A DNA stretch of 48,613 nt from Escherichia phage haarsle, in the sequence record NC_049828.1. One strand, written 5' to 3'. The notes beneath the pieces were generated by a model. That model made no database searches. It worked only from the letters and a program-made list of their open reading frames with translations, and was not told the origin of the DNA. Below are positions 58 through 48,613 of this stretch, one piece after another. A program made the position numbers and the translations under genes. The number at the start of each line of letters is the position of its first letter. Position 1 is the stretch's first letter.

Positions 58-145
58 TCTGTTATCTTCTGTTATCGCTGTTATGCGTGTTATTCCGGCG
101 TGGAATCGCATAACAAAAAATAACAAGAGAAATCCATATAACATA
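58..145. repeat. Iteron cluster: 4 direct TGTTAT repeats (60-65, 70-75, 79-84, 88-93, ~10-bp phasing) followed by 3 inverted ATAACA copies (110-115, 120-125, 138-143)
   Basis: Read directly from the sequence; helical-turn spacing suggests a protein-binding array (pac, ori or regulator site). Confidence 0.6.
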
Positions 146-149
146 CTAA

Positions 150-300
150 AAAATAAGGATTATTTATTTATATGTATCTATAAATTACTATCTGTTGTGT
201 GTATTATGTGGTCATATTGATGTCTGATGTATTTTTGGTGGTTGTGTGTGGTTGTGTATTGGTTGGTGTGTATATATGGGGTGGGGGCGTATCCGCGCTT
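150..300. repeat. AT-rich tract followed by TG-rich degenerate repeats (GGTTGTGT-like units)
   Basis: Low-complexity composition; the only ORF here (212-445, minus) is a translation of the repeat. Confidence 0.5.
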
Positions 301-407
301 TTTTAGATAACACGCAAAAACAACATTGATTTATAAGAAAAAAAACGCGAATCTTGTTATTTTCTGAAAAGATAACATCGGAAAACCGCCAGTAACAACA
401 AAAACAG

Positions 408-437
408 TTGACACGCCAGGTGGCGGTAAATGATAAT
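408..437 (+). promoter_or_regulatory. Sigma70-type early promoter (TTGACA, 17-18 bp spacer, GATAAT)
   Basis: Consensus -35 at 408-413 and -10 at 431-437, about 30 bp upstream of the first rightward gene; spacer contains CCAGGTGG. Confidence 0.65.
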
Positions 438-468: not shown

Positions 469-939
469 ATGAGTGAATCTGTATTTACAAATGAGCTTCG
501 CAAGGTTGCGATTGCGCTCGCATCTGGATTGCACGAATCGATCCAGATACCTGAAAGATGGGTAAGGCAGCACCTGGAGGGCAAGAAGTCAGCCAGCAAT
601 GCTGGATCATATATCCGTCAGATTATGGGGCGCGTTCCAGAAGTGGCGGAGAAGGGGAGAGTTTCAGTATCAAAGAAACCTTACGGCCCTGATAGCGAAT
701 ATTTCGGAGAAAATTACTTTGATGTGGCGATTGTTAGTGCGCCGAATCGCAGGGTGTACAACAAGGCCGCGCTTGAGAAGGCTGTAGCGAAAGCAAAACG
801 CCAGGTTGCTGAGTCGATGCTTAAAGTCTCACCAAACCTAGCGAACTACTCGCCAGATGAATATGAAACACTTGCTAAGGCGATCGCAGACTTTCACGCG
901 ATCATTAAAGAAACATATCTTAACGATGAGGAACAATAA
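469..939 (+). CDS. hypothetical early protein (156 aa)
   Basis: ORF with RBS GAGGAGG 8 nt upstream of the ATG; first gene after the left-end promoter. Confidence 0.6.
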   Translation: MSESVFTNELRKVAIALASGLHESIQIPERWVRQHLEGKKSASNAGSYIRQIMGRVPEVAEKGRVSVSKKPYGPDSEYFGENYFDVAIVSAPNRRVYNKAALEKAVAKAKRQVAESMLKVSPNLANYSPDEYETLAKAIADFHAIIKETYLNDEEQ

Positions 940-940
940 A

Positions 941-1189
941 ATGAGCAAACTTACTCTTGATGAACTGATGGAAAAAATTGATGAAGTGGGCTTTAACAAA
1001 CTGGTTTATTTCCACTTGACCGCATGTGAAATCACCGCGCAGGAGTTTAGCGACATGCTATCTGATGCGAGCGAGATTTACACAAGCCTATGCGGAAGAG
1101 AAATCAAAGTCATTGAAATTGAAATGCCTGGAGATCCGGTATTTGCAAGGCTTGTGTCTGCATTCGATGAGGAGAATGTTGGACTCTGA
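941..1189 (+). CDS. hypothetical protein (82 aa)
   Basis: Start chosen at internal ATG 941 preceded by GAGGA; the longer ORF from 857 overlaps the upstream gene. Confidence 0.5.
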   Translation: MSKLTLDELMEKIDEVGFNKLVYFHLTACEITAQEFSDMLSDASEIYTSLCGREIKVIEIEMPGDPVFARLVSAFDEENVGL

Positions 1190-6127: not shown

Positions 6128-6649
6128 ATGGCTAAAAACGTTGAGCCAGCAGTAAAGGCTTGCAATTTTAAAAAACTATATAATAAGCAATATGGCGATA
6201 TTGCAAAAATGACAAAGGCGCACAAGTACACGCCGGAACAGGTGTTTGATCTGGCTGTCCGTTACTTTACGTGGGCCGAGGAAAACCATATACAGGCGGC
6301 GGAAACGGCATCCTTTCAAGGTGATGTATACGAAAGCAAGATTCACAAGCCGCGCGTGTTCACCTTAAATGGATTCCGCTTATTCGCTGGCCTTTCTGCT
6401 TCCGTGCTTGAAAAATGGCGACGCGAGCCAGGATTCAGCGATGTTATGGACTTTATCGACGGCGTTGTTTACGAGCAAAAATTCCAGCTTGCTGCAAACA
6501 ATATTGTTAACGCCGGATTCATTGGTAAAGAGATCGGCATTGAAAAGCCAGCCACCGTTACCATTGAGAATAACACAAGCGCCAGCGTTGACGCTGTAAC
6601 GGCGGAGGAGGTCAAAGAGGCGGTAATTGACATTTTGGAGAAGATATAA
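6128..6649 (+). CDS. terminase small subunit (putative, 173 aa)
   Basis: RBS AAGGAGG; immediately upstream of and overlapping the large terminase; TATAAT at 6094-6099. Confidence 0.6.
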   Translation: MAKNVEPAVKACNFKKLYNKQYGDIAKMTKAHKYTPEQVFDLAVRYFTWAEENHIQAAETASFQGDVYESKIHKPRVFTLNGFRLFAGLSASVLEKWRREPGFSDVMDFIDGVVYEQKFQLAANNIVNAGFIGKEIGIEKPATVTIENNTSASVDAVTAEEVKEAVIDILEKI

Positions 6650-8217
6650 TGCTGATTTGGGAAGACTTAACAGCGGCGCAAAAACGCGCCGTTAAGGAAA
6701 TGAGCGAATATTCATTCGAAAAGATGATCCGCATTTGGTTTCAACTTCTCCAGGGACAAAGGTTCTTAGGAAACTGGCATTTCAGTTACCTATGTAGCGA
6801 AGTTGAAAAAATCATCAAAGGAGAGTCACAGAATGTAATTTTCAACATAACGCCAGGCAGTGGTAAAACAGAGATATTCTCGATCCACATGTCACCTTAT
6901 GCGTCATTGAAAAGTAAGAAGGTGCGAAATCTTAATCTTTCGTTTAGTGATGGCCTTGTCCAGCAGAATAGCAACCGAATTAAGGAGATTATTGGTTCTC
7001 CAGAATGGCAGGAGCTATGGCCTGGGAAACTGGCAAAGGCAAGCGCAAAGGATTTGATTGTAACCGATGGCGGCAAGGTTAAGTTACAAGTTAACTCGCG
7101 TTCTATTGGTGGTCAGGTTACTGGTCTGCGTGGTGGCTACATGGACGATGGCTTTACTGGTATGCTGGTTCTTGATGATCCAGACAAGCCGGATGACATG
7201 CTTTCTAAGGTGAAGCGCGAAGCCGGACACATGCGCCTAAAGAACACGGTTCGATCGCGTCGAATGAAGGACACCACGCCAATTGTGATGGTTCAGCAAC
7301 GCCTACACGTCAATGATTCAACATGGTTCATGACAAACGGCGGCATGGGCGGCATCAAGTTTAAGGTGGTTAGTATTCCGGCGCTCGTTACTAAGGAATA
7401 TCGCGAAACGCTTCCTGATTGGTTAAAGCCTGAGTTTGATCGCGATGTTTTGTCCAGTAAGCCAGTGATGATTGATGGAGTTGCTCATTATTCATTCTGG
7501 CCTGCTAAGGAAAGCGCGGAGGAATTGCTTGCGCTTCGAAATGCTGATCCGTACACGTTCGCTAGTCAGTATCAGCAACAGCCTGTTGCGCTTGGCGGTA
7601 ACGTGTTTAAAACAGAGTGGTTTCAGTATTACGGCAGCAGCGAGAAATGCACGCTACCAAAACCGGATCGCTTTGAATATACATTTATCACGGTTGATAC
7701 CGCACAGAAAACAGGGGAGCTTAACGACTACTCCGTGATCTGTTATTGGGGGATGTATAAAGATCGCGTTTACTTCATTGATGGTGTTCGCGGAAAATGG
7801 GAAGCACCAGACCTTGAGACTAATTTTGTTGCGTTCGTTAATCAGTGCTGGAAGCGCAATAAAGAATGCGGAACGTTGCGAAGGATTCATGTTGAAGATA
7901 AATCGTCTGGCACTGGTTTGATTCAGAGTGCAGCGAAAAAAATAATGATCAAGATCAATCCCGTTCAGCGCGATAAAGACAAGGTTACTCGTGCAATGGA
8001 CGCAGCGCCAGTAATGCGCGCCGGACGCGTAGCACTTCCAGAATCGCATCCTATGCTGGCTGAGATACTCGCTGAAGTTGCGGCGTTTACATTAGATGAT
8101 TCGCATCCTCATGATGATATTGTTGATAACATCATTGATGCGGTTAACATTGAAATGAACATGGCAGATGATCCGGTTGGAAGAATGAAAAAATTGGCAG
8201 GTTTGCGGAACAAATAG
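6649..8217 (+). CDS. terminase large subunit (522 aa)
   Basis: Size, position before the portal gene, ATPase-like GSGKT motif. Confidence 0.85.
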   Translation: MLIWEDLTAAQKRAVKEMSEYSFEKMIRIWFQLLQGQRFLGNWHFSYLCSEVEKIIKGESQNVIFNITPGSGKTEIFSIHMSPYASLKSKKVRNLNLSFSDGLVQQNSNRIKEIIGSPEWQELWPGKLAKASAKDLIVTDGGKVKLQVNSRSIGGQVTGLRGGYMDDGFTGMLVLDDPDKPDDMLSKVKREAGHMRLKNTVRSRRMKDTTPIVMVQQRLHVNDSTWFMTNGGMGGIKFKVVSIPALVTKEYRETLPDWLKPEFDRDVLSSKPVMIDGVAHYSFWPAKESAEELLALRNADPYTFASQYQQQPVALGGNVFKTEWFQYYGSSEKCTLPKPDRFEYTFITVDTAQKTGELNDYSVICYWGMYKDRVYFIDGVRGKWEAPDLETNFVAFVNQCWKRNKECGTLRRIHVEDKSSGTGLIQSAAKKIMIKINPVQRDKDKVTRAMDAAPVMRAGRVALPESHPMLAEILAEVAAFTLDDSHPHDDIVDNIIDAVNIEMNMADDPVGRMKKLAGLRNK

Positions 8218-26515: not shown

Positions 26516-26789
26516 TTTTGCACCTCAAATCAATAAATTTACTTTCATTTTGCCAACGGTTGATAAATTTAACTTCTTTATTGTCAACGCTCAACCTGTA
26601 TTGTTTTTGGCTGAATCTGTTTTCGCGTACTGCATTAATTTTAACTTCATGGAATCCGTTAACAGGGAATGTTTTAACGTTAAATTTTGCCGTGCAGTCG
26701 ATCTCATTGAAGTTGCCAGTAGGAGACGCTGCGCAACCGGTCAGAGCGGTTACGGTGGCGATAACTGCGATTAATTTTTTCATCTTCAA
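26508..26789 (-). CDS. lipoprotein (93 aa; lipobox LTGC); Cor-like superinfection-exclusion candidate
   Basis: Signal peptide plus lipobox read from the translation; RBS GGAG; position after tail genes and own promoter are typical for a moron. Confidence 0.55.
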   Translation of the reverse strand: MKMKKLIAVIATVTALTGCAASPTGNFNEIDCTAKFNVKTFPVNGFHEVKINAVRENRFSQKQYRLSVDNKEVKFINRWQNESKFIDLRCKNG

Positions 26790-26814
26790 TACTCCTTAGT
26801 TGTCGTTGCCTGTA

Positions 26815-26857
26815 ACTATACACGATCCGACAAGCGGCGTTTAGCAAAAAGTGCTAT
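26815..26857 (-). promoter_or_regulatory. Promoter-like module M3 (variant ATAGCACTTTTTGCTAAAC, TATAGT)
   Basis: Minus-strand 20-mer at 26839-26857, 21-bp spacer, -10-like; drives the lipoprotein cassette. Confidence 0.55.
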
Positions 26858-26886
26858 TCTGTTCTTTTTGTTCTCGCGTGTTCTCA
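26858..26886. repeat. 3 direct TGTTCT repeats at ~10-bp phasing (26860-65, 26869-74, 26879-84)
   Basis: Read from the sequence; analogous to the left-end TGTTAT array. Confidence 0.55.
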
Positions 26887-26929
26887 AATCTGCGGAGTCT
26901 TAAATTTAGCTCAAAAAGTGAACAATAAT

Positions 26930-27115
26930 AGAGCGCAATACATACAGATAAATATATATACATACATATAAATCAATAAGTTAGTAGTATATATATTTAT
27001 ATTTGTTCTTTATTGTTATCTGTGTTTTGTGTGATTTTGTGTTTCTGGTGATTTTTATGTGATTATGCATGTGTCAGTGATTATGTGTGTCTATATATCT
27101 ATATCCGGCGCAAAT
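26930..27115. repeat. AT-rich tract followed by TG-rich GTGATT(T/A)T repeats
   Basis: Low-complexity region; resembles 150-300. Confidence 0.5.
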
Positions 27116-27116
27116 T

Positions 27117-27145
27117 GAGGAACAAGAGAACAAAAAGACAACAAA
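27117..27145. repeat. Inverted (AGAACA/AACA) copies of the TGTTCT repeat
   Basis: GAGGAACAAGAGAACAAAAAGACAACAAAG read from the sequence. Confidence 0.45.
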
Positions 27146-27227
27146 GATATTTATCAATCACTTACATGTAAGTTTTGTTATCCAAGTTGACGAGAACGTT
27201 GTTAAAACAGAAAAAACAAAATAACTA

Positions 27228-27255
27228 TTGACTAAACGCATCAAATAGCTACAAT
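27228..27255 (+). promoter_or_regulatory. Sigma70-type promoter (TTGACT-16-TACAAT) for the recombination operon
   Basis: Near-consensus hexamers about 30 bp upstream of the exonuclease gene. Confidence 0.65.
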
Positions 27256-27284
27256 GCAGACATACCAACCAATGAGGGCAAATC

Positions 27285-28346
27285 ATGAATAAGTTTATGG
27301 CGTACACCAGCGAAGAAATGAGCAATGAGCTTTATCACGATCCAGAAGCGTGGACGGCTGATTATGTTAGCGGATCAAGCCTTGCAGAGATTTACAGCAC
27401 ATGCCCGGCGGCGTGGAAGTTCAAGCCTCGTGACGATAAGAGCAAGGCGCTTGTTTTCGGTACGCAGTCGCATACCAACTTTGAAAGCAAGGAGTTATTC
27501 GAAAAAACCTATCGACGCGCGCCAGCGCCAGAAGACTTTAAGGATCTGATAACTAGCCAAACTGCGCTTGCCGCAAAACTGAAATCATTTGGCCTGAAAG
27601 GTACAACCGGAAATACTTACCCAGAACTTATAAAAATGATGGTTGACTGTGGCGAAGACCTTAACGTTATGTGGTTGATTGAGATGATCGCAGAAAGCCA
27701 AGCTATGACCGACGGAGTGCAGTTAATCGACGCTAAAGACTACGACGCTTGCGTTGCAATGCGCCAAGTTCTGGAATCAATACCGGAACATAACGCATGT
27801 ATGAATAGCAAGACAGCACAACGTGAATTATCGTTGTTCGGTGAAATCAACGGCGTAAAAGTCAAAGTGCGATGCGATCACGTTGACGTAACAAAGAACG
27901 TCACCGCAACGCTGATTGATGGTTACGATGAAAAAGGTCAGCCGATTTGCCGCGATATTATTTATCCAGAGGCCATTGTGATCACAGACTACAAAACCAC
28001 AATGAGCGCGAATCCGGCTGAGTTTATGCGCCTGGCTTACAATCACGGCTATTATTTGAAAATGGCGTTGCAATGTGATTTATTCAGGAAAGCGTATCCA
28101 GAAGAAAAGCGACCTATAGTTGTTCGCCTGTTAGCCCAGGAGAAGAAAGAGCCTTATTTGCCGCTGGCTTTCCGCATGAACAACGAGCAATTGAAGATTG
28201 GGCGCATTCAGTACATGAGCGTAATTAACCAGTTTGCCATGTGCCAGCAACATGACGTTTGGCCTTCGTATTCAAACGGTGAGCCTGAGGTTTGCCTTGA
28301 TACTCCTGATTGGGTGCGCCGCCAGTTTAAGCAATATCTTATTTAA
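27285..28346 (+). CDS. recombination exonuclease, PD-(D/E)xK family (353 aa)
   Basis: Nuclease-like motif region (ITDYKT); first gene of an exo-ERF-SSB module. Confidence 0.55.
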   Translation: MNKFMAYTSEEMSNELYHDPEAWTADYVSGSSLAEIYSTCPAAWKFKPRDDKSKALVFGTQSHTNFESKELFEKTYRRAPAPEDFKDLITSQTALAAKLKSFGLKGTTGNTYPELIKMMVDCGEDLNVMWLIEMIAESQAMTDGVQLIDAKDYDACVAMRQVLESIPEHNACMNSKTAQRELSLFGEINGVKVKVRCDHVDVTKNVTATLIDGYDEKGQPICRDIIYPEAIVITDYKTTMSANPAEFMRLAYNHGYYLKMALQCDLFRKAYPEEKRPIVVRLLAQEKKEPYLPLAFRMNNEQLKIGRIQYMSVINQFAMCQQHDVWPSYSNGEPEVCLDTPDWVRRQFKQYLI

Positions 28347-29452: not shown

Positions 29453-29893
29453 ATGCATATTATTACTGGTGAGATCCGAAAAGAGCCGCGAGTAAAGCAA
29501 ATGCCTAACGGCAGCACGCTTTATGTAGTTGAGCTTTCAGAGCGATACAAAGATAAAGATGGAAACTGGCAATATACAAACTACAGTTTCTTTTTTAATG
29601 CTAAAACAGAAGGTCTTAATGGTTGGTATGCTGAGGCGTTCCAGGTTGGAAAGGTTATTTCTGTATCTTGCGACACGCTTCGCATAGAAACGCGTGAATA
29701 TAACGGAAAGATGTATTCAAGTTTAATGCCTGGTGGATTCGCAAATCTTATATTCAGCCAGCGCGGAGAAGGCCAGCCGCAACAGCAACAACAAGGAGGA
29801 TGGGGCCAACCACAGCAACAGAATCAACAGCAACAACAACCAAAACAAAGCAATCAGCCTCCTATGGACTTTGACGACGACATTCCTTTCTGA
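29453..29893 (+). CDS. ssb: single-stranded DNA-binding protein (146 aa)
   Basis: OB-fold-like N-terminal region, Gln/Gly-rich linker and acidic C-terminal tail DFDDDIPF. Confidence 0.85.
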   Translation: MHIITGEIRKEPRVKQMPNGSTLYVVELSERYKDKDGNWQYTNYSFFFNAKTEGLNGWYAEAFQVGKVISVSCDTLRIETREYNGKMYSSLMPGGFANLIFSQRGEGQPQQQQQGGWGQPQQQNQQQQQPKQSNQPPMDFDDDIPF

Positions 29894-29897
29894 TCAA

Positions 29898-29922
29898 CAA
29901 AGGGGCATTACGCCCCTTTTTC
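29898..29922. terminator. Bidirectional terminator (AGGGGC atta GCCCCT, T5)
   Basis: Hairpin between convergent SSB and the leftward block. Confidence 0.7.
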
Positions 29923-30165
29923 ACTTTCAGCCACTCCAAGCACGGCAATAACCTTGACAGCAATTCGCTTTGCAAGTTCAGTTTGATTCGCGTTCAGCTT
30001 TCCGGTGGTCATTATTGACAACATTCCGCTCATACTTCCAAGCCCGTTAAAATCTGACATTGCCGATTTCATGATTGATATTGGTGAATGACCTTCATCA
30101 GCTATTGTGTGCGCTCTCTCTGACAGGTCTTTAACTACCTGATCTATTCCTTCACTTTTCGTCAT
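29908..30165 (-). CDS. hypothetical protein (85 aa)
   Basis: ORF with RBS AAGGAAAAG. Confidence 0.5.
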   Translation of the reverse strand: MTKSEGIDQVVKDLSERAHTIADEGHSPISIMKSAMSDFNGLGSMSGMLSIMTTGKLNANQTELAKRIAVKVIAVLGVAESEKGA

Positions 30166-30643
30166 TTACTTTTCCTTCAGGAGTTGATTGCTGTTCTGGC
30201 ATTACAGGCCACGGGCTAATTGATTCCCTTTCTGCTACTGGTTTTTCAGGTTCAATGCCTAAAAACTTTCCTACAAACTCACCAACAAAATTTGAACTAT
30301 CGCTTACATAAACATGCATTCTGTCAAGATCTGCAACTGTAACGCTATTTGGTGCGATCATAATTCGCTGTTGGTGAAAACCGATATACATCACATTTGC
30401 CGGACGCTCAATAGTCCCCATATTTGGCGCAATTACGCCCATTATCCAACAATAATGAATGTTGCCATCAAGCGGTTCACATCCAGCGTTAAGCCAGTTT
30501 ACTTTCTGGTGAGGAAACGCCATTGATGAATCAGTAGCATCACGCCGCAACGACCATTTAACGCCGCCAATCTCAATGATTTGTTTTGGCCTCATTCCGT
30601 TGAATTGAGTCACGCCAGCGCCATTTTGATTAATGTTTTGCAT
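30152..30643 (-). CDS. hypothetical protein (163 aa)
   Basis: ORF with RBS GGTGA. Confidence 0.5.
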   Translation of the reverse strand: MQNINQNGAGVTQFNGMRPKQIIEIGGVKWSLRRDATDSSMAFPHQKVNWLNAGCEPLDGNIHYCWIMGVIAPNMGTIERPANVMYIGFHQQRIMIAPNSVTVADLDRMHVYVSDSSNFVGEFVGKFLGIEPEKPVAERESISPWPVMPEQQSTPEGKVNDEK

Positions 30644-38843: not shown

Positions 38844-39083
38844 ATGCAGAAAGAAAGAAGCGTTTATTTAAATGAAACTGGAGAGTGGTTGTTATTTCGC
38901 GCTATGGTTTGCGAGGCGCTTGATAAAAACGATTTCATAAAACCGCTATTAGGTTGCGATCCGTGGGAGTTTACAAGCGCGCTTGATATGAGCTTTGAGG
39001 AAACAAGAAAACTACCGCTTGAAAAATGGCATGAGCAGATCGGTAAAGACTTGCAAGAGTTTTACGAATCCGCGTCAAAATAG
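38844..39083 (+). CDS. hypothetical protein (79 aa)
   Basis: ATG 38844 with RBS GGAG; stop TAG lies inside module P7. Confidence 0.5.
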   Translation: MQKERSVYLNETGEWLLFRAMVCEALDKNDFIKPLLGCDPWEFTSALDMSFEETRKLPLEKWHEQIGKDLQEFYESASK

Positions 39084-39123
39084 CACTTTTTGTTAAAACG
39101 CCCGGCCTTGTGTCGGGCATAAT
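39080..39123 (+). promoter_or_regulatory. Promoter-like module P7 (dyad GCCCGGCCTTGTGTCGGGC, CATAAT)
   Basis: 20-mer at 39080-39099; 22-bp spacer; leader box TCATCAAAACGA. Confidence 0.6.
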
Positions 39124-39155
39124 TACTTCATCAAAACGAACAAGAGGAAAACAAA

Positions 39156-39335
39156 ATGGTTGTTTACGATCCACGCGCTTTTAAAATTGCTCAAGAAGTT
39201 TCACGCGAGTCTGTTGCTGGCGGTTCGGTTAACGGCTATCAGTTTGATTGGTCGGCAGCAATGACCTTGCTTAAGGTTGCATATGGTCACGCGCCAATTG
39301 AAACAGCGGAGGAATATTATAAGCATGAAGGTTGA
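39156..39335 (+). CDS. small hypothetical protein (59 aa)
   Basis: ATG after RBS AAGAGGAAAAC. Confidence 0.45.
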   Translation: MVVYDPRAFKIAQEVSRESVAGGSVNGYQFDWSAAMTLLKVAYGHAPIETAEEYYKHEG

Positions 39336-39567
39336 GCAAGGTAGGCAGGCTGTATGGGATCACGCAAAGGAATGCGGGATCGCAGAAGACATATCCAGGA
39401 TAGCGAAATATTTTGATATTGCTGACATAAGCATTATCAGCGGCGACAAAATGACATTTCTCAATGAACGCCCGCGCAAGATGCATCGCGTACCAGCAAT
39501 ACCAACAAAGATTGATTTCAAAGAGGCTATGGCGAAAATTCGCGAGCCGCGCAAATACTACAAATGA
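39325..39567 (+). CDS. hypothetical protein (80 aa)
   Basis: Coupled start overlapping the upstream stop. Confidence 0.45.
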   Translation: MKVEQGRQAVWDHAKECGIAEDISRIAKYFDIADISIISGDKMTFLNERPRKMHRVPAIPTKIDFKEAMAKIREPRKYYK

Positions 39568-39665
39568 GGATTATTATCATGTGGCGTTTGTTACTTTTGC
39601 CCTTACCTGTTATGATGGCGATCTCTATTGTATATGTTGTCATAATGAAATAAGGAGAATTTTTG

Positions 39666-40781
39666 ATGAAGCAAATCAAAATCACAGATGAACAATTTAT
39701 CAATGAGCGCAAGCAGGGAAAGACATATAAGCAGATCGCTAATGAGTATGGCATGAACGTTCGCAGCATTGAGCGCCGCGCGGCACGATTAGCAAAGCAA
39801 GGTAAAGTTACAACCATCGGATCACCTGGTTTTGGTGTTACTGGAGAATCAAAGCTAATTGATCAAGATGGCAATGTGGTTATGACATGGATTAAGACAA
39901 GCAAGGACCGCGAACAGTTAGAAGCATTAATGCAGGCCGCTATGGATGCATTTAGCGAAGAAGTTCCGCGACTTGATCCGCAACCAGAATCACAAAAGGA
40001 TTATAGCGAGACGTTATCACTGTATCCGATCTTTGATATGCACTTGGGCGCAATGGCGCATAAGCATGAATGCGGAGAGAATTGGGATACAGCAACAGCA
40101 GAGCGCGTAATGAATAATTTCATTGATTATTCCATCCAGTGCGCGCCGGATAGTGAAAAAGCTGTCTTGCTGATTGGTGGTGATATGCTTCACAGCGACG
40201 GACTGGAGGCGGTAACACCTGCAAGCGGTCACGTATTGGATCAAGATAGTCGATACGCAAAACTTGTTTACGTTGCCATCCGGTCAGTGCGTCGGGCAAT
40301 AGCAAAGCTGTTATCAAAACACAAAAACGTCGAGATTCAGATAATTGAAGGCAACCACGACCAAAGCGGCATGATCTGGTTGCGCGCAGCAATGGCGGCA
40401 GCATATGAGAATGAGCCGCGAGTGCATGTTGATGTGTCTCCGCGAGTAGTTCATCACACACAATATGGCAAAACATTCCTGGCATACCATCATGGGCACA
40501 CTATCCGCAAGCCTGAAACATTGCTCATGATGTGCGCGGCAGACTGGCGCGAAGACTTCGGAAATTCAAAAATGATGTATGCTCACGTAGGGCACTGGCA
40601 TCATCAGACAGTAACTGAAACAAGCCTGGGCATTGTTGAAGTGCATAGCACTATGGCGGCAAAAGATGCATATGCGGCGCGCGGTGGATGGCGTTCCCGT
40701 CGCCGTGCGGCTGTTATTGTTTACGATAAAGAATACGGAGAAGTAGGGCGATTTATGCATTATCCAGAAATGGCTGATTGA
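39666..40781 (+). CDS. HTH domain - metallophosphoesterase fusion protein (371 aa)
   Basis: N-terminal HTH-like TYKQIANEYGMNVRSIERR; phosphoesterase-like motifs GGDMLHSDG, GNHD, HHGH; RBS AAGGAG. Confidence 0.5.
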   Translation: MKQIKITDEQFINERKQGKTYKQIANEYGMNVRSIERRAARLAKQGKVTTIGSPGFGVTGESKLIDQDGNVVMTWIKTSKDREQLEALMQAAMDAFSEEVPRLDPQPESQKDYSETLSLYPIFDMHLGAMAHKHECGENWDTATAERVMNNFIDYSIQCAPDSEKAVLLIGGDMLHSDGLEAVTPASGHVLDQDSRYAKLVYVAIRSVRRAIAKLLSKHKNVEIQIIEGNHDQSGMIWLRAAMAAAYENEPRVHVDVSPRVVHHTQYGKTFLAYHHGHTIRKPETLLMMCAADWREDFGNSKMMYAHVGHWHHQTVTETSLGIVEVHSTMAAKDAYAARGGWRSRRRAAVIVYDKEYGEVGRFMHYPEMAD

Positions 40782-40825
40782 ACTTTTAATTATTAAAATA
40801 CCAATATAAATCATAAATTTAATTG

Positions 40826-40860
40826 GGCGAGGCATTTTGCTTTGCCCTTTTTTTATTCCT
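40826..40860 (+). terminator. Terminator (GC stem, T7)
   Basis: GGGCGAGGCATTTTGCTTTGCCC followed by TTTTTTTATT. Confidence 0.55.
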
Positions 40861-40927
40861 TTTTATGCGTTCAATGGTTAGGATACAATCAATTAATTGT
40901 TGACTTTTATTTACAGGAGATCTAATC

Positions 40928-41143
40928 ATGAAAGATTTTTTAAACGCTGCAACTTCCGGCACTGGCGGCGCGTCAATCACTGGCGCGGTAACTGGTCAAA
41001 CAACCATTGCAATAGCCAGCTTCGTTTTGATGGCTGCATTTGGTATGTGGGGGGCTTATCTTCGCTGGCGTGATAGTAAGGCGCTACGTGACGCGCTTGA
41101 ATGCGGAGATATTAAGAAAGCTATTGAAATCAGGGGTAAATAA
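40928..41143 (+). CDS. holin (putative pinholin, 71 aa, one TM helix)
   Basis: Small TM protein directly upstream of the SAR endolysin. Confidence 0.6.
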
Positions 41144-41631
41144 TGAGCATAAAACAAAGAGTGACCGCTGCGGCTTTTGGCGTTGCTCTTGCTCTTACTT
41201 CTCCGTTGCTGGAGGAAATAGAAGGAGTAAAATATAAGCCGTACAAAGATATTGCTGGAATATGGACGGTTTGCGCCGGAATAACTGGACCTGACGTAAT
41301 ACCAGGTAAGACGTACACGCAGAGAGAATGCGATGCGCTACTGGCAAAGCATATCAAGATCGCAAAGGATGAAGTTGATAAGCGTGTTAATGTTGATATT
41401 CCTGATACAATGCGCGCGGCAATGTATTCATTCACATACAATGCTGGCACTGGTGCTTTTAGAAATTCAACCATGCTTAAGCTGATTAATAACGGTCGTT
41501 ATATGGAAGCGTGCGAGCAGTTATGGCGATGGACAAAATACACCAATCCAAAAACAGGAAAGAAAGAAACGTCTAAAGGACTGCGAAACCGCCGCGCTGT
41601 GGAATTTAAATATTGCATTAAGGATCTGTAA
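41143..41631 (+). CDS. SAR endolysin (lysozyme, phage P21 R-like, 162 aa)
   Basis: N-terminal signal-anchor-release segment; [23 protein letters not shown] closely resembles P21 R as recalled. Confidence 0.85.
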
Positions 41632-41633
41632 TT

Positions 41634-42032
41634 ATGAGAAAGTTATCAATAATCGTGATCGCTGTTATTTTGTCTGGATGTTCAAGCGTTATGCCACTGA
41701 CCGGATTAATCGGTAGTAAGCCGGAAATCACAGCACAGGCAGGAGCGGAGAACGTAAAGCAGACCGTTGGCGTTACCGCAAAGCAGGACACCAGCACAAA
41801 ACAGGAAACTACAATAAAGGAATCTGCGGTTGATAAGGTGGACACTTCCAGCAAGAAGGATTTTACTACGTCAACCATTCAGGCTAACACCATCAAGGCT
41901 GATAAAATCCAGGTCGTGCAAGGTGGGCAAAGGAATTGGTACGATCCTATAATCTATTGCGCGGCAATTTTTAGTGGTCTTTTGTCAATGCTTTACTTTT
42001 CCTACCGCAAAGGCAACAAAAAGGAGGCTTAA
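41634..42032 (+). CDS. unimolecular spanin (132 aa; N-terminal lipoprotein signal LSGC plus C-terminal TM helix)
   Basis: Lipobox at the N-terminus and hydrophobic C-terminal segment, the architecture described for the T1 u-spanin. Confidence 0.7.
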   Translation: MRKLSIIVIAVILSGCSSVMPLTGLIGSKPEITAQAGAENVKQTVGVTAKQDTSTKQETTIKESAVDKVDTSSKKDFTTSTIQANTIKADKIQVVQGGQRNWYDPIIYCAAIFSGLLSMLYFSYRKGNKKEA

Positions 42033-42050
42033 CGCCTCCTTTGTTTTATA
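42022..42050. terminator. Bidirectional terminator (AGGAGGC ttaac GCCTCCT, TTGTTTTAT)
   Basis: Hairpin between the convergent spanin gene and the leftward block. Confidence 0.65.
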
Positions 42051-42267
42051 GTGAATCCATCAAATCTTGAAAGCTGTTTCCGCTATAATCATTCTCGACA
42101 AGAATGTAAGCACCTTTCTTCTTTATATCCCATAACATTTCATTGTATTCGTAACGATTTATTTCAAACGTGCTACCATCTTCTCTTGTCGCAGTTCCTT
42201 TGTCGTTGAAAACATCAAAAGTTACATTGATGATTTTTGTTTCTTTTTTTGTTACTTTGATAGCCAT
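42046..42267 (-). CDS. hypothetical protein (73 aa)
   Basis: Start at MAIKV with RBS GAGGA and the conserved leader. Confidence 0.55.
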   Translation of the reverse strand: MAIKVTKKETKIINVTFDVFNDKGTATREDGSTFEINRYEYNEMLWDIKKKGAYILVENDYSGNSFQDLMDSL

Positions 42268-42300
42268 TTTTAAAATCCTCATATTCGTTTCGATGAAACA

Positions 42301-42344
42301 AATATACCCGATACGAGATCGGGTGTTTTAACAAAAAGTGCTAT
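42301..42344 (-). promoter_or_regulatory. Promoter-like module M4 (dyad ACCCGATCTCGTATCGGGT containing GATC, TATATT)
   Basis: Minus-strand 20-mer at 42325-42344 overlapping the TAG stop; 22-bp spacer. Confidence 0.6.
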
Positions 42345-42535
42345 TCAATACGCTTTACAGTAACCAACAAAACTCCGTCCTCATCACACAAATTATGCTC
42401 TGATATATCAAACGCTCGCATGTCAGAATGAATGAGCGTTAACATTGCGTGCATGAAGTCGTCATGTGAGATTGAACTTACGGCGCAGAACTTCAATATT
42501 TTGTCTATTAGCATTTGACGTAAACAATTCTTCAT
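42341..42535 (-). CDS. hypothetical protein (start uncertain)
   Basis: ORF overlaps the 3' end of the upstream gene; no clear RBS. Confidence 0.3.
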   Translation of the reverse strand: MKNCLRQMLIDKILKFCAVSSISHDDFMHAMLTLIHSDMRAFDISEHNLCDEDGVLLVTVKRIE

Positions 42536-42854
42536 CGCTCATTTCTCCGATCCGTAAAACATCTCTTACCCATTCGTTTTGCATACCTTCCAGGCTGTAA
42601 AGTTCAAACGAGAAAGGGCGATTTGCTGATCCTTTCTTACACCAGAACTTTCCACCAACTCCATCAAGATAACCAGCGGTCATCATTCTTGCGCAAAATT
42701 CTTTTGAAACGGCAGTTGCAAACATCCTCGGAGTAAATCCTGCGGCCCTTGCGAGCCGCTCACATTCTCTGTGCTGAAAGATAAATTTTGCTATATGTTG
42801 ACGTGTAAACCATTCGAATGACTCACACCAGCGATACAGATCCAGAAGAAACAT
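42462..42854 (-). CDS. hypothetical protein (130 aa)
   Basis: ORF immediately downstream of the P-loop protein gene. Confidence 0.5.
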   Translation of the reverse strand: MFLLDLYRWCESFEWFTRQHIAKFIFQHRECERLARAAGFTPRMFATAVSKEFCARMMTAGYLDGVGGKFWCKKGSANRPFSFELYSLEGMQNEWVRDVLRIGEMSDEELFTSNANRQNIEVLRRKFNLT

Positions 42855-42856
42855 AA

Positions 42857-44440
42857 TTACCCCAGCAATGTTGGATTTACAAAAACAACGCCATTAATCA
42901 CACAAATATAATTTCTTTCTTCAAGCATCGGCAGCAGTTGCGTTTCCATACGCTTCATTACGCCAGCCTGGCCAACAAACGGCTTAACTTTTCGTGCAGC
43001 CTCATATATGGCGCGCACATTCAAGATCCCCTTGTTAGCCTTACCGTGTCGAGTGATGATCTCGATTAGTTTACCCATTTCAGCATCATCACCAGCATAG
43101 CCAGAAGCGTTGGCGGCGCTAATGTATGTTTTGCTCAACTCGCTAAACATCAGCAATGCTTCCTGAACGGTTTCAACCTCAATCTCTTTCGACTTCTGAG
43201 GGTATCCACCAGGATTAAACCAATTGCGGATAGTGTGCAAAACCGAAGCAATCCTGATCACCTGCTTATCCATTTTGCCAAGCGCACCTCGCAGCATTGT
43301 ATGCGAATACTTTCCGCCATCAGCAAGATGCGGTTCCATCTCCTGACGAGCCATGTTAAGCACTCGCATTGCGGATTTGCTGATCTTAAGCTGGATGCTT
43401 GATTCGCTCATGATGTTATGGATCAGCTTAAAATATTGGCTTTTCAGTTCTCCATCAACAGGTTCATAAGTCGAATCACCGTTATCATCAACAAATTTTC
43501 GACGACCTAAAAATGATTCTTCACGCACAAGCAAATAACGTTCACTCACACCGATACCGCGCGATCCTGCATCCATGATGGCATTAATTGTTTCATCCTG
43601 GGCAATTACTGCCATACAGCCAAGAGCTTTAAAACTCATGTTATTGTCTGCGTTTGCGCGAGCTATAGAAACATGACCGTGATCCCATGCTTTCAGCACA
43701 AGTTCGCTGTTGGTTTTACGTTCGCTATTTGCATATGTCAGACCTAAAAGGCTGTTAATACTCGTTGCCTCGTCTGAAATTACAGCAAAGTTACCCTGGC
43801 GATTGTTGATTCTTGCAAGTCCTTCAGGTGTGGTATCGGACACAGGGAAAACAATGTCACACATCTTTTCAAGTTTTTCTTCAAGATCTTCTTTCTCCTG
43901 GTATAGCGATTCCATATCAGCGCCAGATCGCTCGCTTTTCATCTCTTTTGCAAGACCTGCCAACTTTGCCTGAATCTTTTTCCGCTCCTTCTTTCGCTGA
44001 TCATTAATTCTTTCCACTTCAGCAACCATAGGAGCAAGAGCCAGGCTGTTAACGGCAGATTTACCAGTTGAAGGAGGCTGGCTTGTGACAACATAAAGAG
44101 CGGTTGGCTGATCCGTTCCGTGATACTCAACCGTGAATCGCCCAAGCATTGCAGCAGACACACAGCCGATAAAATGCATATATGCCGATGATTCAGGGAA
44201 TTGAACAGATCGAGCAATGTTTCGCGCCAACTTTCCAACAACATCAACATCATTGCCAAGAGAAATTACAGGGTAGCGATCGTTTCCGTTATTAACATCA
44301 TTAACCTCACCCCAAAAGCTGGACGATTGACGGTATCCGTTAGCCTGAATGGACACGCGCACCGGAGACAATCCTTGTGCATCAGCTAATTCGATAATTT
44401 GTTTTGGTGTTAGTTTATTGGTTTCAAACGAAAAATTCAT
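42857..44440 (-). CDS. P-loop NTPase-like protein of unknown function (527 aa; Walker A SQPPSTGKS)
   Basis: Start at MNFSFE with RBS AAAGGAG; Walker A read from the translation. Confidence 0.5.
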   Translation of the reverse strand: MNFSFETNKLTPKQIIELADAQGLSPVRVSIQANGYRQSSSFWGEVNDVNNGNDRYPVISLGNDVDVVGKLARNIARSVQFPESSAYMHFIGCVSAAMLGRFTVEYHGTDQPTALYVVTSQPPSTGKSAVNSLALAPMVAEVERINDQRKKERKKIQAKLAGLAKEMKSERSGADMESLYQEKEDLEEKLEKMCDIVFPVSDTTPEGLARINNRQGNFAVISDEATSINSLLGLTYANSERKTNSELVLKAWDHGHVSIARANADNNMSFKALGCMAVIAQDETINAIMDAGSRGIGVSERYLLVREESFLGRRKFVDDNGDSTYEPVDGELKSQYFKLIHNIMSESSIQLKISKSAMRVLNMARQEMEPHLADGGKYSHTMLRGALGKMDKQVIRIASVLHTIRNWFNPGGYPQKSKEIEVETVQEALLMFSELSKTYISAANASGYAGDDAEMGKLIEIITRHGKANKGILNVRAIYEAARKVKPFVGQAGVMKRMETQLLPMLEERNYICVINGVVFVNPTLLG

Positions 44441-44467
44441 TGATGATAACTCCTTTTTGATGCGGCA

Positions 44468-44511
44468 ATAATACCGCACCAATGCTACCCGCATTTAACA
44501 AAAAATGCTAT
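44468..44511 (-). promoter_or_regulatory. Promoter-like module M5 (ATAGCATTTTTTGTTAAATG, TATTAT)
   Basis: 20-mer at 44492-44511 overlapping the TAG stop at 44508-44510; 22-bp spacer. Confidence 0.55.
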
Positions 44512-44729
44512 TTTATCCGCTCTATGCTAACTAAGATTTTTTCTGGTTCCTTTGCACTATGGCAATGCGCGGTTACAGAATCAACAAAATCAAAGTAAAG
44601 TGATTTGTGATATGAGAATCCAATCAGCCACCCAACCATCGTTTTCTTTATTGGCCTGACTACATCGCCAGGCTTGAAGGTTTTTGTTGCTGAATAAGTC
44701 ACCTTATAGCGATATTCAGTCTTGATCAC
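44508..44729 (-). CDS. hypothetical protein (73 aa)
   Basis: ORF with coupled ATGA overlap. Confidence 0.5.
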   Translation of the reverse strand: MIKTEYRYKVTYSATKTFKPGDVVRPIKKTMVGWLIGFSYHKSLYFDFVDSVTAHCHSAKEPEKILVSIERIK

Positions 44730-47892: not shown

Positions 47893-48138
47893 TCATTGTT
47901 GATCGTGTTTAACTACCATCATAACATCACAGGACTCGTTAATGAATTTAGCCATACGTTTATCATCACCAGCAGGGATTAGCGCGTTAAACTCGCGCTT
48001 GCTACTGAATACCGTAACTTTATGAAACGATGCGAACGGCATCGACGGGAACTCGACTGTTTGCTTCAAGATCCGCAACCCCATCTTTTTGGCCCTTACC
48101 TGGGCCTCTGCAAGTTCAAAATCCATCTCATTAATCAT
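47893..48138 (-). CDS. hypothetical protein (81 aa)
   Basis: RBS GAGGAG; ATGA overlap with the upstream gene. Confidence 0.5.
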   Translation of the reverse strand: MINEMDFELAEAQVRAKKMGLRILKQTVEFPSMPFASFHKVTVFSSKREFNALIPAGDDKRMAKFINESCDVMMVVKHDQQ

Positions 48139-48407
48139 TTCTTGATCTCCTCAGCAATAAACTTCAATACCTGGCGCAAAAACACTTCGTTGTTGATGGT
48201 CGCTGGCAATTCTTCTTTCACTTCTTGCGGCAGATAGATATTGCCGTGCCAGGTCAAGCAATCGTAGTTGATACGATAAGAGCAGAGCCACTCGCAATCG
48301 TTATCTGCTTCCCAAATGCAGAGTTGCAGAACATCGCCAAAATCTTCAACAGTCAGATCCAGACCGTGACGCTTAGCGAAGTTGAAAGTGGTTTTACTGA
48401 TGTTCAT
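48135..48407 (-). CDS. hypothetical protein (90 aa)
   Basis: RBS CAGGAGA; first gene after module M9. Confidence 0.55.
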   Translation of the reverse strand: MNISKTTFNFAKRHGLDLTVEDFGDVLQLCIWEADNDCEWLCSYRINYDCLTWHGNIYLPQEVKEELPATINNEVFLRQVLKFIAEEIKK

Positions 48408-48442
48408 TTGCTATCTCCTGAGAGGTTCGTTTCGATGTGTGT

Positions 48443-48486
48443 AATGTACCCGATCAGGCGGATTCAGTTTTAACAAAAAGTGCTAT
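48443..48486 (-). promoter_or_regulatory. Promoter-like module M9 (TACATT; spacer contains GATC)
   Basis: 20-mer at 48467-48486; 22-bp spacer; leader CATCGAAACGAA. Confidence 0.6.
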
Positions 48487-48494
48487 TTCTCAAC

Positions 48495-48613
48495 TGGCGA
48501 TTATTCCATCTATTCCATTAATCAGGAATAACAGGAATAACTCATTCGAGATCACCTGGATTGTGAGATCTTGAGTTTGATCAATTTTAATCAGTTGATT
48601 AACTTTTTGTGTG
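48495..48613. repeat. Right-end repeat region: 2 TATTCCAT, 2 AGGAATAAC (9-bp phasing, mutually inverted), 3 GATC sites within 33 bp, palindrome TTGATCAA
   Basis: Read from the sequence; non-coding. Confidence 0.5.

Follow-up and report, generated by a model that had tools for sequence, protein, structure and literature searches.

Phased TGTTAT/ATAACA repeats beside AT-rich DNA in Escherichia phage haarsle: a candidate replication-origin module with a twin upstream of the recombination genes

Where does a T1-like phage begin to replicate its DNA, and where does it begin to package it? Both questions are raised by the left-end control region of Escherichia phage haarsle. Bacteriophage T1 is a classic T phage, and its relatives are common laboratory and industrial contaminants; to our knowledge, neither its replication origin nor its initiator is known, and its packaging signal (pac) has never been defined at the sequence level. 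We analysed the haarsle record NC_049828.1 (48,613 nt, hereafter the window; all coordinates are on this record), which opens with a helically phased array of TGTTAT and ATAACA units. For this array, the original prediction had listed a replication origin, a terminase recognition site or a cooperative regulator-binding array. The origin and the regulator array stay as leading readings, the former held tentatively and the latter with more reserve, and the pac site is disfavoured by the independence of the array from the small terminase (TerS). The first 1500 bases are 93-97% identical to the Hanrivervirus phages EC147, vojen, damhaus and pSf-1, and the taxonomy of the matches (Hanrivervirus, Drexlerviridae, subfamily Tempevirinae) places them among the T1-like phages.

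A pattern search located TGTTAT on the plus strand at 60, 70, 79 and 88 (spacing 10, 9 and 9) and again at 355, and ATAACA at 110, 120, 138, 307 and 372, with extended forms at 306 and 371 (GATAACA) and at 354 (TTGTTAT). The four direct units, the three inverted units, the promoter-proximal copies and the phasing of about 10 bp had all been predicted, and all were found. Ten of the 50 genome-wide matches to TGTTAT/ATAACA fall within 318 bp (60-377), and dinucleotide-shuffled genomes held a mean of 30 matches in total against the 50 observed. The Poisson probability is about 4e-12 for at least 10 matches in 330 bp and about 7e-12 for at least seven in 84 bp, and all other 400-bp stretches of the genome hold at most three of the hexamers. 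The seven units in 84 bp, with their period of 9-10 bp, are thus phased short repeats far beyond chance, as in iteron-type origins. Tandem Repeats Finder also reported 58-93 (period 9-10, 3.8 copies, consensus CTGTTATCG). We consider it very probable that these units form a genuine, phage-specific array of protein-binding sites.

The array consists of a left arm (60-93, plus strand) of four direct TGTTAT units phased at 9-10 bp, a GC-rich centre TCCGGCGTGGAATCGC (94-109) and a right arm (110-143, minus strand) of three inverted units. The centre overlaps a small hairpin, ATTCC-GGCGT-GGAAT (90-105), and is a member of a recurrent YCCGGCG(TAAA) motif that occurs once in each half of every module. 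This motif, also found as CCTCCGCA, lies at 94-109, 288-296, 26890-26900 and 27103-27112 and in the related loci L006, L014, L022, L034 and L035, always between TGTT-type and AACA-type units; it may be the site of a second protein or a symmetry centre.

Both arms together form an imperfect palindrome across 62-131, and as single-stranded DNA the array folds with a free energy of -14.2 kcal/mol (z = -4.3). One could read it as a structural element (cruciform or hairpin) or, by its units, as tandem sites for a host winged-helix response regulator of the ArcA/PhoB type, but we consider either very unlikely. The arrays of JakobBernoulli (z = -5.3), E6 and contig L025 fold well too, whereas those of tiwna, Stevie, TLS, L024 and L029 and the second module described below have no excess hairpin stability; a conserved hairpin or cruciform, stable in four phages and absent in six, was thus rejected, the folding being put down to the inverted arms. 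CTGTTAT is one base off the pho-box half-site (PhoB CTGTCAT repeats), three units differing from CTGTCAT at a single position, and TGTTA is the ArcA core (ArcA TGTTA repeats). However, the units are spaced by 9-10 bp instead of the 11 bp of ArcA and PhoB, and phages of the same host differ in their units (TGTTAT, TGTTCT, CGATTAACA or CTAGACA).

To the right, the repeats abut easily melted DNA, as they do in iteron-type origins. The AT tract at 126-200 (18% G+C) ranks second in the genome for low duplex stability. Its core, the AT block (144-195, about 18% G+C, low duplex stability), is a candidate DNA-unwinding element, in which the conserved motif CTATAAYACATTGAAAAATAAG..ATTTATTTATAT recurs across Tempevirinae. 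A GT-rich, nearly C-free tract follows (196-296, plus strand), in which the C content of a 100-nt stretch falls to the genome minimum (3 C vs a median of 20): 190-296 hold 7 C in 107 nt, three of them before 288, and the GC skew rises to +1.0. Within it, Tandem Repeats Finder detected a period-10 repeat, GTGGTTGTGT, at 238-270 with 3.3 copies. The AT-rich and TG-rich tracts that had been predicted are both present, but their starts had to be corrected to about 126-144 for the AT tract and to about 196, not 230, for the GT tract. Furthermore, the TG-rich repeats (230-295), which had been taken for a separate feature, seem to consist of the same TGTK units, multiplied and degenerated.

The GT tract ends in a G run, a weak terminator-like hairpin and a T run (281-304), and next come the promoter-proximal sites (297-407), comprising a TCCGCGC centre, GATAACA (306-312), TTGTTAT (354-360), GATAACA (371-377) and an A-rich UP-like stretch. 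The predicted sigma-70 type promoter of the rightward early operon is located at 408-437 on the plus strand (TTGACA 408-413, an 18-nt spacer, GATAAT 432-437). It has 11 of 12 consensus matches, ends 31 nt upstream of the start codon of the first gene, gp1, and is the sole consensus match in 1-1500, which bears out the near-consensus promoter proposed for this position. We dropped a terminator at 281-304, whose weak stem of 5 pairs lacks conservation beyond the close group, and T7-type primase sites in the GT tract, where a single TGGTC is absent from vojen at that place. A consensus search for a promoter within the AT block that could transcribe the GT tract, as R-loop priming would suppose, was negative. 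In the inverted pair at 355/372 (354-377), both arms change together from TGTTAT/ATAACA to TGTTGT/ACAACA in damhaus, ESh4, A14b and 2019SD1, and in pSf-1 and one metagenomic contig the pair is replaced by GTTTC...GAAAC.

An alignment of nine close phages revealed how unevenly this region is constrained. Variable columns amount to 4.8% in the array (60-143) and 3.8% in the AT block, compared with 16.8% in the gp1 coding sequence (469-939, plus strand; 79 of 471), 27.7% in the GT tract, about 30% in the proximal sites and promoter (354-437) and 32% in the G-box and spacer (1-59). Within the region, conservation peaks at 60-195, with 6 variable columns of 136 against 18-32% in the flanks. The GT tract keeps its composition but not its sequence, and the promoter hexamers TTGACA/GATAAT are conserved throughout, so that hexamers, a spacing within 16-18 bp, conservation and a downstream gene all accord with a sigma-70 promoter. 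Enrichment and conservation together indicate that the repeats beside AT-rich DNA, as first proposed, are a genuine and strongly constrained cis element.

The order of elements is shared by distant Tempevirinae, namely tiwna, E6, STSR3, Stevie, TLS, SP-126, Samwise and six metagenomic contigs; a related-locus search on viral contigs yielded two loci. From left to right, a leftward 21-nt direct repeat is followed by phage-specific left repeats, a G-rich box, three to four direct TGTTNN units with a spacing of some 10 bp, a centre rich in G+C (in many cases CCTCCGCA or CCGGCG), two to three inverted NNAACA units, the conserved AT block, the GT-rich tract, a second CCGCG-type centre with more AACA units, a TTGAC(A/T/G) promoter and gp1. 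The arms agree inside each phage, TGTTAT being paired with ATAACA or TGTTC with GAACA.

Which protein would read such an array? The most likely candidate would be gp1 (469-939, plus strand; 156 aa, Pfam DUF7174 / phrog_4841), the first product of the early operon. Its family is narrow, 1.84 billion proteins having yielded 95 clusters (at 50% identity), and the gp1 homologue is the first or second early-operon gene in every case examined (annotated phage records and contigs of about 50 kb). The N-terminal domain appears weakly winged-helix-like, the yardstick for that fold being an H-S-H-H-S-S topology with significant structural matches. A distant-homologue search gave no informative domains, and neither an NCBIfam search with gp1 nor a profile search against PDB sequences produced a match.

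The comparison of T1 with the Logan contig L028 brings the protein and the sites together. Their left block, flanks and AT block are 90-95% identical, and the repeat positions hold CGATTAACA/TGTTAATCG six times in T1 but CTAGACA four times and GTGACA three times in L028, the differences lying to the left and right of the AT block as well as close to the promoter. The gp1 proteins are 60% identical overall; the N-terminal part has diverged, whereas identity is 97% over the C-terminal ~60 residues. Scattered sites that change in concert with a single gp1 domain are what one would expect if that domain binds DNA at those sites. From linkage alone, one diverged block would have resulted, and the patchwork seen here instead favours domain-site pairing. 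At residue 51, gp1 has Q/N where the arms are of the TGTTAT type and T/M where they are of the TGTTC type; as the lineages are not independent, this is suggestive only and was set aside. In Tlsvirus SP-126, Henuseptimavirus Samwise and several metagenomic contigs (L010, L015, L023, L025 and L026), an extra 95-aa gene lies between the promoter and the gp1 homologue (~1000-1290).

The array and gp1 also travel together between phages. JakobBernoulli, KarlJaspers and aalborv share 88-95% identity with haarsle left of ~60 and a TerS that is 99.4% identical, yet the array cannot be aligned (21-22 matches in 84 positions) and gp1 is only 24% identical. The mosaic breakpoint is at ~60-65, and similarity is back at ~1194, where it also returns for other Hanriverviruses. 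The exchangeable cassette thus spans 60-1193 and comprises the array, the AT and GT tracts, the promoter, gp1 and gp2 (941-1189, plus strand; 82 aa, phrog_31863), the final gene of the cassette. The tiwna-type phages, conversely, have a different left block and are nonetheless 94% identical in the right arm and AT block and 60% identical in gp1.

The module is present a second time in the haarsle genome. This paralogous module 2 (26785-27284, plus strand) lies between the Cor exclusion cassette and the exonuclease VIII-Erf-SSB operon, whose exonuclease VIII gene occupies 27285-28346. Its left part runs from a 21-nt direct-repeat element (26838-26857, minus strand) through three TGTTCT units, a ctgcggag centre and GAACA to an AT block, the least stable duplex stretch of the genome. 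Its right part comprises a GT-rich, C-poor tract, a tccggcgc centre, two GAACA units and the promoter TTGACT-17-TACAAT. Compared with the left-end region, module 2 lacks only a TATTCC/GGAATA palindrome, the palindrome TAATCAGTTGATTA and a G-box. It also occurs in JakobBernoulli, tiwna, SP-126 and T1, being ~90% conserved in all Hanriverviruses and recognisable in tiwna, SP-126 and T1; in SP-126 the promoter association is kept without a divergent partner. T1 has two repeat types: CGATTAACA is restricted to the left-end module, and the second module (T1 29851-30377) carries GTGTAACAG/TGTTACA about seven times, the same unit occurring twice around the -10 region of the T1 gp1 promoter (470-510 of the T1 locus L003).

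We tentatively read the module as an iteron-type replication origin, an initiator-binding array beside an unwinding element. The array would be a platform for a phage-encoded, sequence-specific DNA-binding protein, most likely gp1, whose early operon starts 325 bp downstream. Helically phased units, four on one strand and three on the other, converging on the GC-rich centre would load this protein on one face of the DNA, and a second, looser set of sites (306-377) would lie past the AT block and the GT tract devoid of C. With protein on either flank, the AT block could then be opened, aided by negative supercoiling from the divergent early promoters, and the phage primase and SF2 helicase or host replication proteins could be recruited. 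Module 2 would serve as a second origin, as with oriL/oriR of SPP1. We infer gp1 binding to the repeats, melting of the AT block and replication start at the module by analogy with such systems.

We favour the origin because the repeats abut the most meltable DNA of the genome, with second sites on its far side and extreme strand asymmetry. It is also favoured because 60-195 are almost fully conserved, because a candidate binder is encoded next to them and because gp1 is split into a variable N-terminal and a conserved C-terminal part like lambda O. Furthermore, the two-site layout resembles SPP1 oriL/oriR, and no other initiator was recognised among the ~20 open reading frames scanned, a minority of those in the genome (including those for the primase, the SF2 helicase, exonuclease VIII, Erf and SSB).

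Several observations weigh against the origin. Searches for gp1 relatives matched Pfam DUF7174 only and none of the known initiator families such as Phage_rep_O and Rep_3, and a search of the region for DnaA boxes found no match. Most relatives carry degenerate units (TGTTTT, TGTTTC and TGTTCC within one phage), which may mean low specificity, and the haarsle array is unusually regular among them. Neighbouring DNA and gene can co-diverge through linkage alone, although the T1/L028 pattern is patchy. Moreover, module 2 is ~90% conserved in phages with very different gp1 alleles, and no gp1 paralogue able to read it was found in the genome, so that gp1 would have to read the shared TGTT core or a second protein would be involved. 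Lastly, each module is coupled to a strong early promoter, as would be expected just as much of a role in transcription.

This last point leads to a possible, though more doubtful, explanation, in which the module controls early transcription. Here, gp1 or another early protein would bind 60-143 and 306-377 and loop the AT/GT segment, repressing or timing the divergent early promoters (of the gp1 and leftward operons) and the exonuclease VIII-Erf-SSB operon; it would be a switch of the Cro or phi29 p4/p6 kind in a phage that uses host RNA polymerase only. Indeed, each module runs into a near-consensus sigma-70 promoter, at a distance that differs little between the two; GCAG opens both transcribed regions behind the -10 hexamer, and the promoter retained in the SP-126 module 2 points the same way. 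In T1, the -10 region of the gp1 promoter is flanked on either side by a GTGTAACA/TGTTACA unit, and the unit recurs in T1 module 2. The position of gp1 as the first gene behind the promoter is usual for autoregulators, and the proximal pair 355/372 changes symmetrically in four relatives. On the other hand, 265-350 bp separate the main array from the -35 hexamer downstream of it, the array is free of consensus promoters, and no unit in haarsle covers the -35/-10 region. Simple operators are seldom accompanied by such an unstable AT block and a 100-nt C-free tract, and the near-total conservation of 60-195, spacers included, exceeds what hexamer operators need.

The remaining option for the array is the packaging signal. 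In vojen, the sequence ...ttaactttttgtgtg|gaggggatagag... runs uninterrupted across the record junction, so the record represents a complete, circularly permuted genome whose two ends join. The array thus sits in a single divergent intergenic region of 674 bp (48408-48613 plus 1-468), with a leftward operon on its left (first gene 48135-48407, minus strand) and the rightward early operon on its right (first gene gp1, 469-939). A further copy of the hexamer lies at 48528, in the same region but on the other side of the junction. The location at the left end, as the original prediction had it, stands; there is no edge, and the region continues for 206 bp at 48408-48613. The terminase genes lie 6 kb to the right of the array, TerS (P22 gp3-like) at ~6146-6649 and the large subunit at 6649-8217.

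The left part of this region has features of its own. The left block (48495-48613), which is confined to the left-end region, contains a TATTCC palindromic pair, three GATC sites and the palindrome TAATCAGTTGATTA. The pair, TTATTCC-ATC-TATTCC / GGAATA-ACA-GGAATAA (48501-48540), occurs nowhere else in the genome and is conserved in relatives as distant as T1, and TAATCAGTTGATTA (48587-48600) is a perfect match to the IHF consensus, the sole one found. Among the nine close phages, the left block has a mean pairwise identity of 94%, and it is retained where TerS is shared but the array differs. At the junction, the G-box GAGGGGATAGAG and a GC-rich spacer (1-59) form the last stretch common with JakobBernoulli-type phages; the T1 homologue of the box is gagaggggggatctag. 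The GATC cluster (48550-48582) was dropped as a P1-like Dam-regulated pac element since two of its three sites are lost in close relatives.

The T1 record starts ~55 bp left of gagaggggggatctag, with 1-2800 annotated as terminal repeat, and in the TLS record 45 nt precede the equivalent of the G-box. The start of the TLS record is a pac position deduced from restriction digests and then adjusted by resemblance to the pac of P22 (PMC11447400), and pac in T1 and its relatives has been placed within this untranslated region (PMC7718038). The earlier suggestion that the record start hints at a packaging end thus agrees with the left end of the T1 and TLS records and with the placement of pac (PMC11447400, PMC7718038).

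It is improbable, however, that the small terminase assembles on the array itself for the first (pac) cut, as at P1 pac or SPP1 pacL/pacR. The array does lie 60-143 bp from the record start, in the intergenic region where T1 and TLS put pac (PMC11447400). An IHF-consensus palindrome is near (48587-48600), and the four plus three hexamers around a 16-bp centre recall P1 pac. Against this stands an array of the same architecture at 26.8-27.3 kb, far from any genome end; a pac site would be expected once per genome, and only the left block and the G-box are unique. A pac site should also vary with the small terminase, but TerS is 97-100% identical in ~60 records that carry at least four gp1 types (95-99%, 43%, 24% and N-terminal-only similarity), each with its own array type. 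The tiwna-type phages change the left block and keep the right arm and AT block at 94% (a TerS identity of 73% belongs to their relatives NorthRox and tunus, tiwna's own TerS being unlisted). As for a position at the mapped first-cut end, the array region matches the T1 and TLS record starts as far as coarse mapping can tell, and the published pac positions, at restriction-map resolution, fall left of the array.

The left block appears to follow the backbone including TerS, and the array appears to follow gp1. Because of the paralogous module 2, the unrelated arrays beside near-identical TerS proteins (99-100% where the array is replaced) and the left-end-only elements left of 60, which also speak against the terminase option of the original prediction, we are rather confident that the array is not the TerS recognition site. 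The left block (48495-48613) would be the best candidate for a pac or terminase signal, ahead of the array.

The T1 record begins at a palindrome, GTTGCATGGTGTGCAAC, and the two best short matches between the T1 region and lambda 39000-44600 are both there (lambda 39898-39910 and 42844-42854). With E = 0.05 and 0.75, these matches were too weak to use. The T1 terminase reportedly starts packaging at a site between lambda P and Q (esp-lambda), and a relation to GTTGCATGGTGTGCAAC is only a possibility.

How does the candidate origin compare with known systems? It recalls lambda ori/O in its phased repeats next to an AT-rich, strand-asymmetric unwinding region, in a candidate binder that is encoded beside the site and expressed early, and in a site and N-terminal domain that vary among related phages while the C-terminal part is conserved, the classic lambdoid pattern of O/ori type specificity. 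However, lambda has four iterons of 18-19 bp, each an inverted repeat, within the O gene, whereas haarsle has 6-7 bp units, four direct and three inverted, upstream of the gene. Furthermore, gp1 has 156 aa and no sequence match to Phage_rep_O or another initiator family, a P-like helicase loader was not identified in haarsle, and the haarsle module is present twice.

The resemblance to SPP1 oriL/oriR (G38P) lies in two distant regions of a virulent, pac-type siphophage genome, each with repeats and AT-rich DNA; in SPP1, one of the two origin regions adjoins the organizer gene. Binding of G38P is proven by experiment, whereas the haarsle binder is a candidate from sequence, and both haarsle modules are fused to a sigma-70 early promoter and contain a C-free GT tract. 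Iteron plasmids (RepE / Pi) similarly combine direct repeats at the origin with an inverted half-site pair near the promoter of the initiator, as with 355/372 in haarsle. Their iterons are longer (17-22 bp) and their Rep proteins have two winged-helix domains, and the haarsle pair lies upstream of the -35 hexamer, not over the promoter. P1 pac, where four plus three hexamers flank the pac cut, is similar in its short centre, its place near a genome end and a nearby IHF-like site. The P1 hexamers contain Dam sites and are recognised by PacA/PacB, whereas the haarsle array is free of GATC, is duplicated mid-genome and varies independently of TerS.

Repeats, AT-rich DNA and a neighbouring binder are familiar in kind; unfamiliar are the geometry of the units, the duplication of the module, its GT tract and the protein family. 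The TLS authors reported the genome to be free of iterons and identified no origin, and the TGTT arrays are unmentioned in their paper (PMC11447400). Our literature search found no description of the arrays, the second module or DUF7174, although an earlier account in the T1 (2004) or Rtp (2006) genome papers is possible. It is conceivable, if still doubtful, that T1-like phages carry two copies of a previously undescribed origin module that is read by a new family of small initiators (DUF7174). Such a module would consist of repeats that converge and share a TGTT core, a block for unwinding and a GT tract without C, linked to an early promoter; its repeats and the DNA-binding domain would be swapped as a specificity cassette among virulent phages that are almost identical elsewhere.

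The analysis splits the left-end control region in two, a terminase-linked block and an exchangeable block of repeats, unwinding element and gp1 with a twin upstream of the recombination genes, and suggests what DUF7174 might do. Should the module be an origin, it would be the first origin, and gp1 the first initiator, for Drexlerviridae. It would explain how replication starts in a phage without a polymerase or recognisable initiator and would be a case of a lambda-like origin-specificity swap in virulent phages. If it is an early-promoter switch instead, the module would still define the main regulatory sites of the family.

Searches of the region for Chi and Fis patterns gave no matches, and an Rfam search of 1-1300 returned nothing relevant. 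The 5' leader of the leftward operon (48408-48494, minus strand) contains one copy of a 21-nt direct repeat, ATAGCACTTTTTGTTAAAAC, at 48467-48486 in minus orientation. This repeat has already been described for TLS (PMC11447400). In haarsle it has 15 copies, at 1196, 1659, 3986, 12469, 16229, 26838, 35536, 38060, 39080, 42325, 44492, 45168, 47087, 47593 and 48467, mostly oriented with the downstream gene. The 21-nt intergenic repeats of TLS and T1 (aaATAGCACnnnTTGnTAAAA) belong to the same genomes as the modules, and one copy flanks the left of each module; unlike the phased arrays, they are 15 dispersed single copies upstream of genes. Among the records with TerS 98-100% identical to that of haarsle are about 20 entries labelled 'UNVERIFIED Campylobacter phage' (MG065636-MG065687), which are Hanriverviruses and probably represent contaminating or mis-hosted T1-like phages.

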